Assembly (NCBI RefSeq): GCF_022846255.1
Contig: NZ_AP025682.1
Reading direction: 5' to 3' (one strand)
Length of the DNA stretch: 64,000 nt
Source of the DNA: Escherichia coli
GTDB taxonomy: Bacteria; Pseudomonadota; Gammaproteobacteria; Enterobacterales; Enterobacteriaceae
The first letter of the stretch is position 1, and every line of letters begins with the position of its first letter. The position numbers were made by a program, and so were the translations under genes. A model generated the notes under the pieces. It did not search any database, was not told the origin of the DNA, and saw only the letters and a list, made by a program, of their open reading frames with translations. This document shows, in pieces, positions 2,257-34,086 of this stretch.

Positions 2257-3138
2257 ATGGATCTGCGCCGTTTTATTACACTTAAAACCGTGGTGGAAGA
2301 GGGTTCCTTTTTGCGAGCTTCGCAAAAATTGTGCTGTACACAATCGACGGTGACTTTTCATATTCAGCAGCTTGAGCAGGAGTTCTCGGTACAATTGTTT
2401 GAGAAAATTGGTCGACGAATGTGCCTTACCCGCGAAGGAAAAAAGTTGCTGCCGCACATCTATGAACTTACCCGAGTGATGGATACGCTTCGTGAGGCTG
2501 CGAAAAAAGAGTCGGATCCGGACGGGGAACTACGCGTTGTTTCAGGCGAAACGTTGCTCTCTTACCGAATGCCGCAGGTGTTGCAGCGTTTTCGGCAACG
2601 CGCTCCAAAAGTGCGTTTATCGTTGCAGTCGCTGAACTGTTACGTGATCCGTGATGCGCTACTGAATGATGAGGCCGATGTCGGGGTTTTTTATCGCGTA
2701 GGGAATGATAATGCTCTGAACCGGCGAGAGTTGGGTGAACAATCGCTGGTGCTGGTGGCTTCACCGCAAATTGCAGATGTCGATTTTACTGAGCCGGGAA
2801 GACATAACGCCTGTAGTTTTATTATCAATGAACCGCAATGTGTCTTCCGCCAGATATTTGAGAGCACGCTGCGCCAGCGACGGATCACGGTGGAAAACAC
2901 CATTGAGCTTATAAGTATCGAAAGCATCAAGCGTTGTGTCGCGGCAAATATCGGGGTCAGTTACCTGCCGCGCTTTACAGTGGTAAATGAACTTGCGAGT
3001 GGCGAATTAATCGAATTGCCTTTTGGCGAACAGTCGCAGACGATTACGGCAATGTGCGCTCACCATGCCGGAAAAGCGGTTAGCCCGGCGATGCACATTT
3101 TTATTCAGTGTGTTGAAGAGTGTTTTTTGCCGGGATAA
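2257..3138 (+). CDS. yfiE: LysR-family transcriptional regulator
   Basis: 293 aa from the internal ATG (MDLRRFITLKTVVEEGSF...), N-terminal helix-turn-helix; conserved synteny. Confidence 0.85.
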   Translation: MDLRRFITLKTVVEEGSFLRASQKLCCTQSTVTFHIQQLEQEFSVQLFEKIGRRMCLTREGKKLLPHIYELTRVMDTLREAAKKESDPDGELRVVSGETLLSYRMPQVLQRFRQRAPKVRLSLQSLNCYVIRDALLNDEADVGVFYRVGNDNALNRRELGEQSLVLVASPQIADVDFTEPGRHNACSFIINEPQCVFRQIFESTLRQRRITVENTIELISIESIKRCVAANIGVSYLPRFTVVNELASGELIELPFGEQSQTITAMCAHHAGKAVSPAMHIFIQCVEECFLPG

Positions 3139-3170
3139 AAATAATGCCGGGCTTAAACCCGGCATTGAGA

Positions 3171-4505
3171 TTACTCTTCTGTCGTTTGCGGTGGCACGCC
3201 CGTTCCGCTCGGTTTACGGCGCTTACCAATATTTTTGGTGTCGCGATGGCGTTTTTTCACCCGCGGCTTATCTTTCTCTTTAGCTTTTTTCTTCTCGGCG
3301 CGTTTAGCCAGTACTTTCTTCGATGGCTTGCCGGTCTGCTTCTCGCTTGGCGCACGCGTTTTCGGGCGTAACTCATCAATTACACGAGCTTTAATTGGCT
3401 CTTCAATATAGCGACCAACTTTGCCCAGCAGCAGATGGTCATGGGCTTCTACCAGCGAAATTGCGGTGCCTTTACGACCGGCGCGCGCGGTACGTCCGAT
3501 ACGGTGCAAATAAGTATCGCCACTGCGCGGCATATCGAAGTTAAAGACGTGGCTGACGTCAGGAATGTCGATACCGCGCGCGGCAACATCGGTTGCAACC
3601 AGTACGTTTACGCGACCTTCGGTCAAACGCTTGATCGCTTCGTTACGCTTGCCCTGTACCATCTCACCTTCGAGATAGCAGTTGTTGATGCCCGCTTCGC
3701 GCAGCCAGTTTGCCAGCTCATGCACACGCTCACGCTTACGCACAAACACAATTGAGCGGGTCGCTTCCGGCTGTTTTAACAGGTGCACCAGCAATGCGGT
3801 TTTATGTTCCAGGTCATCGGCGCGGTAATACCACTGATGAATTTTTTTGCGCTCACGGGTGGACGGATTGGCAGAAACCTCCACCGGATCTTCCAGCAGA
3901 CGCTCGGCAAAGTCCTGAATCGCATCGCCTTCCAGCGTTGCCGAAAAGAGCAGGGTCTGTTTACGCCAGCGCGTTTCGCCAGCAATATGTTCGATATCCT
4001 GAGCGAAGCCCATATCCAGCATACGGTCTGCTTCGTCGAGGATCAGCGTTTCAACCGCGCGGCAATCGAAGTTCTCTTCTTTTATGTATTGCAGCAGACG
4101 TCCGGTCGTGGCGACCACAATGTCCTGGTTTTCGCTGAACACTTCTGCGTGGTTCATATAGGCCACGCCGCCGGTGATGGTGGCGATATCCAGATGCGTA
4201 TGTTTCGCCAGTTCGCGGGCATGATCGGCCACCTGCATCGCCAGCTCGCGAGTTGGGGTGAGGATCAAAATACGCGGCGGACCGGATTTCTTACGTGGGA
4301 AATCGAGCAGGTGCTGCAACGCTGGCAGCAGATACGCCGCCGTTTTACCGGTGCCTGTCGGCGCAGAACCGAGTACATCACGGCCATCGAGCGCAGGCGG
4401 AATGGCGGCAGCCTGAATGGCGGTCGGGCGAGTGAAACCTTTATCCTGGAGGGCTTCCAGCAGGCTTTCGTCGAGTTCAAGTTCGGAAAAAGTCGTTACA
4501 GTCAT
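3171..4505 (-). CDS. srmB: ATP-dependent DEAD-box RNA helicase SrmB
   Basis: 444 aa; APTGTGKT Walker A, DEAD box ([14 protein letters not shown]), basic C-terminal tail. Confidence 0.95.
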
Positions 4506-8647: not shown

Positions 8648-9603
8648 TGAAGCAACTTTGGTTTGCCATGTCATTAGTGACAGGTAGCCTGTTATTCTCT
8701 GCTAACGCCTCGGCCACTCCCGCGTCCGGGGCGTTATTACAGCAGATGAACCTGGCCAGTCAGTCACTGAATTACGAGCTGTCATTCATCAGCATCAATA
8801 AACAGGGTGTTGAGTCTCTGCGTTATCGACATGCACGCCTCGATAACCGTCCTCTTGCACAATTGTTGCAAATGGATGGCCCGCGCCGGGAAGTGGTACA
8901 GCGCGGCAATGAGATCAGCTATTTTGAACCGGGACTTGAACCGTTCACGCTTAATGGCGATTACATTGTTGATTCTCTGCCATCGCTCATCTATACCGAT
9001 TTCAAACGCCTTTCTCCTTACTACGACTTTATCTCCGTCGGGCGCACGCGTATTGCTGATCGTCTTTGCGAAGTTATTCGCGTGGTTGCCCGAGATGGTA
9101 CACGCTACAGCTACATCGTGTGGATGGACACCGAATCGAAATTACCGATGAGGGTTGATCTCCTTGATCGCGATGGTGAAACGCTGGAACAATTTCGCGT
9201 GATTGCTTTTAATGTCAATCAGGATATCAGCAGCAGTATGCAGACGCTGGCGAAGGCAAATTTGCCGCCGTTGCTTTCTGTTCCTGTAGGTGAAAAAGCC
9301 AAATTCAACTGGACTCCAACCTGGTTGCCACAGGGTTTTAGCGAAGTTTCCAGTAGTCGACGTCCGCTACCGACGATGGACAACATGCCTATTGAATCAC
9401 GTCTCTATTCCGACGGATTATTCAGCTTCTCGGTAAACGTTAACCGCGCTACGCCATCGAGCACCGATCAGATGTTGCGCACCGGACGCAGAACCGTCAG
9501 TACAAGCGTACGTGATAACGCCGAAATCACCATTGTCGGTGAACTGCCGCCGCAAACGGCGAAACGCATTGCCGAGAATATTAAGTTCGGGGCAGCGCAA
9601 TGA
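8647..9603 (+). CDS. rseB: sigma-E regulatory protein RseB
   Basis: 318 aa with signal peptide; start overlaps the rseA stop. Confidence 0.95.
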   Translation: MKQLWFAMSLVTGSLLFSANASATPASGALLQQMNLASQSLNYELSFISINKQGVESLRYRHARLDNRPLAQLLQMDGPRREVVQRGNEISYFEPGLEPFTLNGDYIVDSLPSLIYTDFKRLSPYYDFISVGRTRIADRLCEVIRVVARDGTRYSYIVWMDTESKLPMRVDLLDRDGETLEQFRVIAFNVNQDISSSMQTLAKANLPPLLSVPVGEKAKFNWTPTWLPQGFSEVSSSRRPLPTMDNMPIESRLYSDGLFSFSVNVNRATPSSTDQMLRTGRRTVSTSVRDNAEITIVGELPPQTAKRIAENIKFGAAQ

Positions 9604-10079
9604 TCAAAGAGTGGGCTACCGTCGTCTCCTGGGAAAACGGGCAGGCGCTGGTTAGTTGTGATGTTAAAGCCTCATGCAGCAGCTGCGCTTCACGCGCCGG
9701 TTGCGGTAGCCGCGTGTTGAATAAACTTGGCCCGCAAACCACGCATACCATTGTCGTACCCTGTGATGAACAGTTAGTGCCGGGGCAAAAAGTAGAATTA
9801 GGAATCGCCGAAGGCAGCCTGCTTAGCTCCGCATTACTGGTTTATATGTCGCCGTTGGTGGGACTATTCCTCATCGCTTCACTATTTCAGCTACTCTTTG
9901 CTTCAGATATTGCAGCATTATGCGGTGCGATTCTCGGTGGCGTTGGTGGATTCCTGATTGCACGTGGCTGCTCTCGAAAGTTTGCTGCCCGGTCTGAATG
10001 GCAACCGATCATCTTAAGCGTGGCCTTGCCGCCTGGCCTTGTGCGATTTGAAACATCTTCGGAAGACGCGAGCCAGTGA
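9600..10079 (+). CDS. rseC: sigma-E regulatory protein RseC
   Basis: 159 aa with cysteine-rich N-terminus and C-terminal membrane segments; overlaps the rseB stop. Confidence 0.93.
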   Translation: MIKEWATVVSWENGQALVSCDVKASCSSCASRAGCGSRVLNKLGPQTTHTIVVPCDEQLVPGQKVELGIAEGSLLSSALLVYMSPLVGLFLIASLFQLLFASDIAALCGAILGGVGGFLIARGCSRKFAARSEWQPIILSVALPPGLVRFETSSEDASQ

Positions 10080-10276
10080 TTTCACTGGCTTTGTTGCATT
10101 TTGCATAACAAATGCGAGGACGTTTCCAGATACCACAATCCATACGGTATGAACATTTCCTCGCCTCAATGTTGTAGTGTAGAATGCGGCGTTTCTATTA
10201 ATACAGACGTTAAGCTCAGAACAGCGACTTCTAAAAGCCTGGTTAACCGGGCATTAAGGCACAATAATCATACTTT

Positions 10277-12076
<1,800 letters not shown>

Positions 12077-12091
12077 CCCTTAGGAGTTGGC

Positions 12092-13066
12092 ATGGCGAAT
12101 ATGTTTGCCCTGATTCTGGTGATTGCCACACTGGTGACGGGCATTTTATGGTGCGTGGATAAATTCTTTTTCGCACCTAAACGGCGGGAACGTCAGGCAG
12201 CGGCGCAGGCGGCTGCCGGTGACTCACTGGATAAAGCAACACTGAAAAAGGTTGCGCCGAAGCCTGGCTGGCTGGAAACCGGTGCTTCTGTTTTTCCGGT
12301 GCTGGCTATCGTATTGATTGTGCGTTCGTTTATTTATGAACCGTTCCAGATCCCGTCAGGTTCGATGATGCCGACTCTGTTAATCGGTGATTTTATTCTG
12401 GTAGAGAAGTTTGCTTATGGCATTAAAGATCCTATCTACCAGAAAACGCTGATCGAAACCGGTCATCCGAAACGCGGCGATATCGTGGTCTTTAAATATC
12501 CGGAAGATCCAAAGCTTGATTACATCAAGCGCGCGGTGGGTTTACCGGGCGATAAAGTCACTTATGATCCGGTCTCGAAAGAGCTGACGATTCAACCGGG
12601 ATGCAGTTCCGGCCAGGTATGTGAAAACGCGCTGCCGGTCACCTACTCCAACGTGGAACCGAGCGATTTCGTTCAGACCTTCTCACGCCGTAATGGTGGG
12701 GAAGCGACCAGCGGATTCTTTGAAGTGCCGAAAAACGAAACCAAAGAAAATGGAATTCGTCTTTCCGAGCGTAAAGAGACACTGGGTGATGTGACGCATC
12801 GTATTCTGACAGTGCCGATTGCGCAGGACCAGGTGGGGATGTATTACCAGCAGCCAGGGCAACAACTGGCAACCTGGATTGTTCCGCCGGGACAATACTT
12901 CATGATGGGTGACAACCGCGACAACAGCGCGGACAGCCGTTACTGGGGCTTTGTGCCGGAAGCGAATCTGGTCGGTCGGGCAACGGCTATCTGGATGAGC
13001 TTCGATAAGCAAGAAGGCGAATGGCCGACAGGTGTGCGCTTAAGCCGCATTGGCGGCATCCATTAA
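12092..13066 (+). CDS. lepB: signal peptidase I
   Basis: 324 aa; catalytic SGSMMPTL motif. Confidence 0.97.
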   Translation: MANMFALILVIATLVTGILWCVDKFFFAPKRRERQAAAQAAAGDSLDKATLKKVAPKPGWLETGASVFPVLAIVLIVRSFIYEPFQIPSGSMMPTLLIGDFILVEKFAYGIKDPIYQKTLIETGHPKRGDIVVFKYPEDPKLDYIKRAVGLPGDKVTYDPVSKELTIQPGCSSGQVCENALPVTYSNVEPSDFVQTFSRRNGGEATSGFFEVPKNETKENGIRLSERKETLGDVTHRILTVPIAQDQVGMYYQQPGQQLATWIVPPGQYFMMGDNRDNSADSRYWGFVPEANLVGRATAIWMSFDKQEGEWPTGVRLSRIGGIH

Positions 13067-13081
13067 TAGCCCATCTTCGTT

Positions 13082-13110
13082 CACGTTGTCGCCGTTATGG
13101 CGACAACGTG
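13082..13110 (+). terminator. hairpin after lepB (probable terminator)
   Basis: 12-bp perfect stem CACGTTGTCGCC / GGCGACAACGTG with loop GTTAT; the downstream T-run is weak. Confidence 0.45.
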
Positions 13111-13211
13111 AATTATTTATGAGATAAATCTCCCGTGGCTAACGACATCCCCCGTCGTTGTGTATAGAATATTCCCCCGAAGTTTAAGGTTGGCACCTCC
13201 AGGTTGCCACG

Positions 13212-13305
13212 GCACACGAAACAGCGTTGGTCCCCATATACCGGTAAACTGAAACTGCAGCGAAGCAGTTAGCAGAGCCATGTATATCAGGTCTGTTTCG
13301 TGTGC
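13212..13305 (+). promoter_or_regulatory. rnc leader long-range stem (candidate RNase III autoregulatory site)
   Basis: 13-bp inverted repeat GCACACGAAACAG (13212..13224) / CTGTTTCGTGTGC (13293..13305) in the 5' UTR of rnc. Confidence 0.45.
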
Positions 13306-13308
13306 TGA

Positions 13309-14921
<1,613 letters not shown>

Positions 14922-16784: not shown

Positions 16785-16805
16785 AAAATACCGTTCTCTT
16801 TATAA

Positions 16806-16890
16806 AGTAAAACCCCCGAACTGGTAAGGAACGGGGGTTTTCAGTTTACAACTTTAATTTTGTGCAGCACACGATTCCAACGGAAATAAT
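16806..16890 (-). ncRNA. ohsC: candidate OhsC-like antisense sRNA; approximate bounds
   Basis: Inferred from the K-12 locus. A minus-strand transcript over 16862..16880 would be complementary (18 of 19) to 17111..17129 in the shoB 5' UTR and could end at the hairpin at 16813..16841. Confidence 0.3.
16813..16841. terminator. rho-independent terminator after acpS, possibly bidirectional
   Basis: Stem CCCCCG / CGGGGG with a 13-nt loop and T4 on the + strand; U-rich on the opposite strand as well. Confidence 0.6.
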
Positions 16891-17954: not shown

Positions 17955-19352
17955 ATGCCGCGCACTGTAACACATAATCCGGATAGCCCCAATAATGACG
18001 ATGTTTTAGCCGCATCTGAAAAATGGGACGCCTGTAAACCCCCCTATACCAGCGCACACATGAAAATCTGTGTTGCTGCCGCCAAAATCATCCTCGCTGC
18101 TTCCGGCGTGGCTCGCCGTTCCAAATACGAAAAAGAGAACTATCTCCGTATCGATTTCAGCAAAGCCGGTAAGGTTACATTTTACGCCGAGTTTCCAAAA
18201 AAGATGGGCCTCAAAGGTAAAAAGCTCGGCGAGTGGCCGGAGCTCGCTATCCAGCTGGCGCGCGAAAAAGCGCTAGGTATGGCTGACGGTGGCCTGCGGG
18301 CAGAGTCCGTACATGCAGCGCTGGAAATGTACCGGGATGACCTCAAAGCCAAAGTCGCCCGGCAGAAGCTGAGCCCGGACAGTTTCACAACCTACGGGGT
18401 GCGTATCGACCGGATTAAAGCAACGTTCGGCGAGCGCGAGGTGTTCAGCGACGTAACATACAATCGGCTGGTGGAAGTGCTGGACGAGTGGATCGCTACT
18501 CGCTCGAACAATAACGCCCTGGAGTTGTTTGCCGAGCTCCGTCGGTTCTGGAAGTTCTGCGCACCTACTCTTTGCAACGGCCGCAATGTTGCCGCCAGTC
18601 TGCCAGATGATTATGTTTCCTCCCGCGTACAGAAACCTACCCCCACACGGCTTTTTACCGATATTGAATCAATCGCCCGACTCTGGCTCAATGTTGCTGC
18701 CTGCACCTCTGTACACCAGAAGAATGCTGTTCGCTTCATGATCATCACTGGTGTTCGTCCGATTAATGTCCATAACCTGCGCTGGGACTACGTTCACGAG
18801 GAGGCTGGTGAAATTGTTTATCCGGAAGGGGTTATCGGCATGCGAGGGGCTATGAAAACACAAAAGGCTTTCCGCCTGCCGATAACCCCTGAGATCCGGC
18901 GGATTATCGACGAGCAGAAAGCCTGGCGTGATTCAGTTCCTGAGTGCAACAGGGATTATGTATTTTTGCAGCCACGTGATCCAATGCAGCCATTTTCAAA
19001 ACGATCACTGGATAAGCTGGTGAAAACATACAGCCCGGACGGGGCTGTAAAAGGAATAAAACATGATGGGACTGTTAAAGGGAAAGACGGTGCATTTAAT
19101 ACGATGTGCCGTAAATTCCTTAAGAGCAATGTTATTGCCTTGATGAAGGAAAGAGGCTATTCCCGCTCAGACCGAAGGGAAATCAGCCTCCTTTGCCTTC
19201 ACCACTCCAGCAAGTCAGATGACCCGATGGCAGAACATTACGACTTTTCTGATGAGATTTTACAGGAAGAGATTGCGTTGAAGCGCGAAGCTTTCGAGGC
19301 TCACGAGCGGAGCATACTTGCGCAGGTGGCATTGCTACGGCGGCGAGGTTAA
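17955..19352 (+). CDS. phage integrase (divergent tyrosine-recombinase-like)
   Basis: 465 aa from the internal ATG with AAGGA Shine-Dalgarno (ORF-track start 17949 is TTG); position beside attL; candidate catalytic R/H/Y residues in the C-terminal half. Confidence 0.65.
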   Translation: MPRTVTHNPDSPNNDDVLAASEKWDACKPPYTSAHMKICVAAAKIILAASGVARRSKYEKENYLRIDFSKAGKVTFYAEFPKKMGLKGKKLGEWPELAIQLAREKALGMADGGLRAESVHAALEMYRDDLKAKVARQKLSPDSFTTYGVRIDRIKATFGEREVFSDVTYNRLVEVLDEWIATRSNNNALELFAELRRFWKFCAPTLCNGRNVAASLPDDYVSSRVQKPTPTRLFTDIESIARLWLNVAACTSVHQKNAVRFMIITGVRPINVHNLRWDYVHEEAGEIVYPEGVIGMRGAMKTQKAFRLPITPEIRRIIDEQKAWRDSVPECNRDYVFLQPRDPMQPFSKRSLDKLVKTYSPDGAVKGIKHDGTVKGKDGAFNTMCRKFLKSNVIALMKERGYSRSDRREISLLCLHHSSKSDDPMAEHYDFSDEILQEEIALKREAFEAHERSILAQVALLRRRG

Positions 19353-20940: not shown

Positions 20941-20955
20941 ATAATATGGCTCCTA

Positions 20956-20989
20956 AACAACAAAAGGCCAATTTAGGCCTTTTGTTGTT
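20956..20989 (-). terminator. 14-bp perfect hairpin between the 305-aa cargo gene and the helicase gene
   Basis: AACAACAAAAGGCC / GGCCTTTTGTTGTT with loop AATTTA; 3' arm is U-rich on the minus-strand transcript. Confidence 0.45.
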
Positions 20990-21002
20990 TTAAAAATGTT
21001 AT

Positions 21003-25551: not shown

Positions 25552-25580
25552 CAAGTAAGGACCCGTTGGATTTAATAAAT

Positions 25581-25607
25581 AAAAAGCCGCCAAAATGGCG
25601 GCTTTTT
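25581..25607 (-). terminator. rho-independent terminator directly after the SIR2-like gene
   Basis: GCCGCC / GGCGGC stem with a 5-nt loop, flanked by A5 and T5 (bidirectional shape). Confidence 0.6.
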
Positions 25608-25627
25608 ATAACCGAAGTTAAGAATGC

Positions 25628-33938: not shown

Positions 33939-34086
33939 AAGAGAAGGTGGTTCCACCTTGCAGACCTTGTGGCAAGCGGGGCGGAACCACTGGAACCACC
34001 TTTCTACTAGAAACCCCATATATATATATAAGTCGATTGAGGGAAAGGTTAGGAAAAGGTGGTTCCAGGTGGGGGCAGGTGGTTCC
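33908..34086. repeat. iteron cluster with central (AT)6 tract; candidate replication origin
   Basis: GGAACC(A/G)C direct copies at 33908, 33917, 33927, 33983, 33992; inverted GGTGGTTCC at 33946, 34058, 34078; ATATATATATATA at 34018..34030. Confidence 0.55.

Follow-up and report, generated by a model that had tools for sequence, protein, structure and literature searches.

The leader of rnc, the gene for RNase III, carries two complementary stretches of 13 nucleotides set well apart from each other, raising the question of whether they pair in the mRNA and whether the resulting hairpin is the site at which RNase III controls its own synthesis. An initial annotation of the 64,000-nt stretch of Escherichia coli DNA analysed here (the window) had proposed as much, placing a 13-bp stem just upstream of the rnc start codon as a candidate RNase III autoregulatory site, and a separate hairpin further upstream as the probable terminator of lepB. 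According to the list of open reading frames, the gene order in the window is lepA-lepB-rnc-era-recO, followed by pdxJ and acpS, and an identical E. coli locus is annotated in RefSeq with the same genes. The start of era, at 14016, is overlapped by the stop codon of rnc. The DNA between lepB and rnc is 100% identical to that of many E. coli strains and is present as a single copy in 5425 of 5426 complete E. coli genomes. The features discussed below are collected in Table 1.

Table 1. Features of the lepB-rnc region, in coordinates of the window; numbers with a plus sign refer to the rnc transcript.
Feature	Position	Strand	Basis
lepB	12092-13066		
lepB-rnc intergenic region, 272 nt			
Intrinsic-terminator-like hairpin after the lepB stop: stem 13079-13113, loop GTTAT/TTA, U-rich tail TATTTAT	13079..13120	+	Inverted repeat, terminator-pattern match, fold
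rnc promoter-like site: -35-like ACGACA 13142-13147, 17-nt spacer, -10 TAGAAT 13165-13170	13142..13170	+	Consensus scan
rncO, whole RF00552 match (160-nt 5′ UTR and first 55 nt of rnc)	13179..13393	+	Covariance model, published UTR length
Hairpin I, 7 pairs	13191..13209	+	Rfam consensus structure
Stem-loop II basal helix, 5′ arm (+32 to +46)	13210..13224	+	Inverted repeat, Rfam structure, pair probabilities, conservation
Stem-loop II, enclosed part	13225..13292	+	Folds, alignment
Stem-loop II basal helix, 3′ arm (+115 to +129)	13293..13307	+	Inverted repeat, Rfam structure, pair probabilities, conservation
A/U-rich linker AAUUGUUGACGCAUUUAUUUAUUGGUAUCGC, holds the ribosome-binding region	13308..13338	+	Near-invariant alignment columns
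rnc coding sequence (RNase III, 226 aa)	13339..14019	+	Open reading frame list, RefSeq annotation of identical locus
Hairpin III, 8 pairs, in the first rnc codons	13359..13378	+	Rfam consensus structure

The sequence GCACACGAAACAG occupies 13212-13224 and, after an interval of 68 nt, CTGTTTCGTGTGC at 13293-13305 is its exact reverse complement. The stem first annotated is thus exact, and it is extended by the pairs G13211.U13306 and C13210-G13307 to a helix of 15 pairs (13210-13224/13293-13307). Its occurrence is far beyond chance: in first-order Markov simulations of a 64-kb sequence, perfect inverted repeats 13 nt long with a loop of 3-100 nt had an expectation of 0.07 per 64 kb, and any such repeat arose in 5 of 100 simulations. 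At zero mismatches, the 13-mer is unique in the window. The rnc ATG, at 13339, follows the 3′ arm of the 13-bp stem after 33 nt, or after 31 nt if all 15 pairs are counted, which agrees with the position originally assigned to the stem.

The 98-nt hairpin closed by this helix, stem-loop II (13210-13307), has a folding energy of -41.2 kcal/mol when folded alone (z = -5.3), and none of 200 dinucleotide shuffles was as stable. Within the first 300 nt of the transcript, all 15 basal pairs had ensemble probabilities of 0.95-1.00, so that RNA folding bears out the proposed stem. Stem-loop II was fully reproduced in the MFE and centroid folds; hairpin I was complete in the MFE fold and partial in the centroid, and hairpin III had an ensemble probability of about 0.5. 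Above the basal helix, the enclosed part begins with a conserved 2x2 internal loop (CG 13225-13226/GU 13291-13292) followed by a short helix (UUGG 13227-13230/UCAG 13287-13290), and its tip is an irregular apical hairpin that varies between lineages. With 15 uninterrupted pairs and 17 more across small loops in the Rfam structure, stem-loop II contains the two turns of helix looked for in an RNase III target. The window holds four other perfect inverted repeats, 14-15 bp in length, where 0.07 13-mer repeats would be expected per window: 18827-18890, 20955-20990, 25579-25609 and 33990-34068. Their loops range from 3 to 51 nt, those at 20955-20990 and 25579-25609 (stem ATAAAAAGCCGCCA) being short, at 6 and 3 nt, and those of the other two long, at 36 and 51 nt.

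Positions 12000-14500 were scanned against all Rfam families, and the scan was repeated on the whole window. The one significant match in 12000-14500 was to RF00552 (rncO), with 258.4 bits and E = 2.9e-61 on the + strand, covering positions 1-214 of the 214-position model; the gathering score of this family is 43 bits. Starting at the inferred +1 (13179) and reaching codon 19 of rnc, the match occupies the leader of the first gene of rnc-era-recO, downstream of lepB. All three hairpins of the model were found, with II as the long one, and no non-standard pairs were flagged in the covariance-model alignment. A second match on the minus strand (13210-13307, 22.9 bits) lies below threshold and was rejected as the mirror image of a near-palindromic helix rather than a second element. 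Two minus-strand open reading frames, at 13117-13395 and 13184-13321, also cross the leader; they overlap the conserved RNA element and carry no RefSeq annotation.

The rncO element, the RNase III operator in the leader of E. coli rnc-era-recO, is said to go back to work by Bardwell et al. in 1989 and by Matsunaga, Simons and Simons in 1996. Having been described in 1989-1996 and curated in Rfam, it is already known. The element found here is the same one, as judged from the full-length model match, the same locus and the three-hairpin layout, in a sequence identical to that of sequenced strains; no difference from rncO of E. coli was seen, and the initial annotation had covered no more of the operator than 13 perfect pairs in the basal part of stem-loop II. 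These findings support the identification of the inverted repeat as the basal helix of rncO stem-loop II, the described RNase III autoregulatory operator.

The published coordinates of the transcript are consistent with this identification. According to an experimental paper from 2023, the rnc 5′ UTR comprises nucleotides 1-160, of which nucleotides 1-129 served there in vivo as a native substrate for RNase III, with primer extension as the assay (PMC10037077). Since the ATG is at 13339, a UTR of 160 nt puts +1 at 13179, a start site derived from the published UTR length that coincides exactly with the first position of the Rfam model. Nucleotide 129 is then 13307, the last base of the basal helix, from which the transcript numbering of its two arms in Table 1 follows. 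Stem-loop II therefore spans +32 to +129 in the mRNA, and the published 1-129 fragment ends exactly at the 3′ base of the stem. This agreement, the RF00552 match and the literature together support the RNase III autoregulatory site that had been suggested from the stem. The promoter-like site upstream has a poor -35 element, and its position agrees with a start at 13179; TATAGAAT (13163-13170), which includes its -10 hexamer, is invariant across the 78 species aligned. A conserved inverted repeat, AACGAC(N7)GTCGTT, lies over the -35-like hexamer at 13141-13159 and is retained in nearly all 78 species.

The separate hairpin downstream of lepB, originally given as 12 bp at 13082-13110, is also real. 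It begins 13 nt past the lepB stop and comprises 14 perfect base pairs (13080-13093/13099-13112), or 16 pairs at 13079-13113 when G.T is counted, with a folding energy of -26.6 kcal/mol (z = -6.6). A scan for terminator patterns accepted it with 16 pairs, 8 of them G-C, and 5 T in 8, the U-tract being interrupted. In other genera the alignment has a G+C-rich hairpin of quite different sequence in the same place, with compensatory changes and always followed by AATTATTT. The pattern match, the compensatory conservation and the invariant AATTATTT tail suggest that this hairpin probably terminates lepB, as was first thought; it bears the signature of a conserved intrinsic terminator, and with its interrupted U-tract it is best regarded as a putative one.

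To examine conservation of the leader, the RNase III protein was searched against species-representative genomes in a single scan; the comparison covers the top 80 rnc loci by similarity, all from Enterobacteriaceae, at 96-100% protein identity. All 40 loci scanned for rncO exceeded the gathering score (149-231 bits), and the basal arms were present in 79 of the 79 loci with upstream DNA, with a constant distance of 33-34 nt between the 3′ arm and the ATG. Pairs were counted in an alignment of 78 distinct leaders for four elements, namely hairpin I, the 15-bp basal helix, the four pairs above the internal loop and hairpin III. Overall, 95.3% of cells were paired, as against 32-47% when the partners were slid by 1-3 columns. 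For the basal helix the figure was 97.5% (the slid values of 32-47% refer to the whole tested structure), and 11 of its 15 pairs were invariant in the 78 leaders. A compensatory swap was seen at 13223/13294, which is C-G in 40 sequences and A-U in 29, including E. coli, and single mismatches occur in some lineages at three positions of the helix, such as A.C at 13219/13298 in 9 sequences. Hairpin I covaries freely, both sides having changed in 5 of its 7 pairs, and it accounts for most of the seven pairs with double-sided changes overall. Hairpin III has 96% of its cells paired and none with double-sided changes. So little variation occurs in the basal helix (12 of 19 pairs are constant throughout) that covariation gives it only thin support. 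The linker at 13308-13338 (TTGTTGACGCATTyATTTATTGGTATCGC) is almost invariant in the 78 species and is more strongly conserved than hairpin I. The linker also holds TTGACG...TATCGC, which is superficially promoter-like.

In every leader, stem-loop II folds as one unbranched hairpin, with a length that varies from 47 to 122 nt around a median of 49 nt, so that the 98-nt hairpin of E. coli is a long form. In the forms of 47-49 nt, the 15-bp basal helix carries only the 2x2 CG/GU internal loop, the 4-bp helix UUGG/UCAG and a small loop. Within the E. coli/Salmonella/Citrobacter clade there is a related apical extension of about 65-68 nt, and Raoultella and Kosakonia/Phytobacter have different long inserts above a basal helix and 2x2 loop that are nearly unchanged. 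This comparative picture, of a basal helix that appears to be almost invariant below an apex that can expand, is the only point of the analysis that is modestly fresh.

What the hairpin does is described in several previous studies. A long, irregular hairpin in the rnc 5′ UTR is cleaved by RNase III (PMC3867540, PMC10582724, PMC8708148, PMC5371410, PMC10037077), leaving an unstructured 5′-monophosphate end that is recognised by RNase E (PMC3867540), and cleavage results in faster decay of rnc-era mRNA and in less RNase III and Era (PMC5371410, PMC10037077, PMC3867540, PMC10582724). Abundant substrates such as rRNA precursors titrate RNase III and relieve this repression (PMC3867540, PMC10582724, PMC8708148, PMC5371410, PMC10037077). 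The supplements of Gordon 2017 contain no entry for the rnc leader.

Placed on the sequence, these observations suggest the following course of events. Transcription would begin at about 13179, downstream of the putative lepB terminator, and the nascent leader would fold into hairpin I and the 98-nt unbranched hairpin II, clamped by its 15-bp helix, the intact 5′ structure shielding the message. Free RNase III that exceeds the supply of its main substrates, the rRNA precursors, would bind the double-helical hairpin II and cut it. The cut would strip off the 5′ structures and leave the downstream mRNA with a 5′ monophosphate on a single-stranded, A/U-rich end. RNase E would then attack this exposed end, the linker serving as its presumed single-stranded entry region, and less of rnc and of the translationally coupled era would be made as a result. 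Structure, identity and conservation are provided by the present analysis, and cleavage and decay by literature on the same sequence; taken as a whole, the explanation of the hairpin as the rncO operator is very probably correct. The operator would thereby set the level of RNase III and, by translational coupling, that of the essential GTPase Era, tying both to the load of rRNA precursors.

Where in the hairpin RNase III cuts is a matter of greater doubt. The idealised E. coli RNase III site has 22 bp and is symmetric about the cuts, and internal loops are able to confine cutting to one strand (PMC3867540). Since the commonest hairpins, those of 47-49 nt, have only 21 stacked positions (15 + 2 + 4), the centre of such a site would fall in the basal helix. 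A cut in the upper half of that helix would give a new 5′ end made up of about 10 nt of the 3′ arm and the A/U-rich linker. We infer that the cut lies within the basal helix or right next to it rather than in the apical part, a placement for which the balance in E. coli is about even. Extending this to the family, one may tentatively regard the operator of most Enterobacteriaceae as a mini-hairpin of 47-49 nt that offers one RNase III footprint, and the 68-nt interior of the E. coli/Salmonella/Citrobacter hairpin as a lineage-specific apical extension. The invariance of 11 of the 15 basal pairs, set against the free covariation of hairpin I, would then mean that the basal helix is read by its sequence and not merely by its shape; if so, what the sequence fixes would be the cut site and the RNase E entry end so created. 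No demonstration of autoregulation in the genera with short hairpins was found in the literature consulted.

Alternatively, cleavage of the E. coli hairpin by RNase III might be confined to its irregular apical part; the basal stem would then merely clamp the hairpin and later stay paired with the 5′ fragment. The description of the substrate as an irregular hairpin (PMC3867540) would suit this, the approximately 17 pairs above the E. coli basal helix allow other placements of a 22-bp footprint, and the related pnp leader reportedly keeps a duplex after its RNase III cut (Jarrige 2001). However, the apical extension is missing in most genera, which have kept the basal helix nearly unchanged along with the 4-bp helix and the internal loop between them, and the unstructured 5′ end described in a review (PMC3867540) fits a cut low on the 3′ arm. 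An engineered fusion of nucleotides 1-129, moreover, releases a working guide RNA on cleavage (PMC10037077), which also speaks against a cut confined to the apex. Restriction of cleavage to the apical part therefore seems unlikely, but it is the one live alternative, and it concerns a detail only.

An intact rnc leader stabilises the mRNA, and the hairpin is a strong structure close to the 5′ end, both of which would be expected of a mere 5′ stabiliser that protects against 5′-end-dependent decay and is no RNase III target. Cleavage of the hairpin by RNase III is nevertheless stated by several independent papers (PMC5371410, PMC10037077, PMC3867540, PMC10582724, PMC8708148), making this very improbable, and a stabilising role would complement that of an operator without replacing it. 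A long inverted repeat between promoter and gene could also be a transcription attenuator or terminator, or a palindromic site for a regulator acting at the DNA level, downstream of the rnc promoter. The first of these is rejected because the stem is followed by UGAAUUGUUGACG, with no U-tract, and the terminator scan gave no match there; the second is excluded because pairing is retained, including by the compensatory swap, across species in which the arms lie anywhere between 23 and 98 nt apart, as fits an RNA and not a dimeric DNA site, so that scarcely any likelihood is left for either. A chance inverted repeat, or the remnant of a repeated or mobile element, has only the bare fact of the repeat in its favour and can be dismissed given an expectation of 0.07 per 64 kb, a 13-mer unique in the window, a single copy in each of 5425 E. 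coli genomes and the same place in 79 loci from other species.

As an operator cut by RNase III, rncO can be compared with other systems. The RNase III site of the rpsO-pnp leader is likewise a long leader hairpin whose cleavage by RNase III starts the decay of the downstream mRNA (PMC5371410, PMC8708148). It differs in being regulated by PNPase, which has to clear away the small RNA that is still paired once RNase III has cut, whereas in rnc the cutting nuclease is itself the regulated product. Signals of the phage T7 R1.1 type resemble rncO in structure, as they too are irregular hairpins about two helical turns long that contain an internal loop; these signals mature and often stabilise mRNAs, whereas the cut in rncO destabilises its message. 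In the rne 5′ UTR, as in that of rnc, a structured leader element allows a ribonuclease to gauge its own spare capacity, but there the enzyme is RNase E, the RNA element is unrelated and single-stranded RNA is recognised. Confirming rncO in this DNA adds nothing new to its biology; it does mean that a true regulatory RNA had been recognised from the letters alone.

Other RNAs were met in the course of the Rfam scans. RF02746 (AsrC, an antisense RNA of rseC mRNA) matched on the minus strand at 9564-10395 with 510 bits, opposite the rseC/lepA junction. RF02495 (ohsC, the sRNA antitoxin of the shoB type I toxin) matched at 16804-16881, also on the minus strand, with 89 bits, just downstream of acpS, and shoB is annotated near ohsC in a RefSeq genome. 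Among the 40 loci scanned from other genomes, one, from Klebsiella oxytoca, had a match to RF02902 ('Aggregatibacter sRNA 22') downstream of era/recO, at 3109-3200 of that locus on the + strand, with 48.5 bits against a threshold of 39.8.
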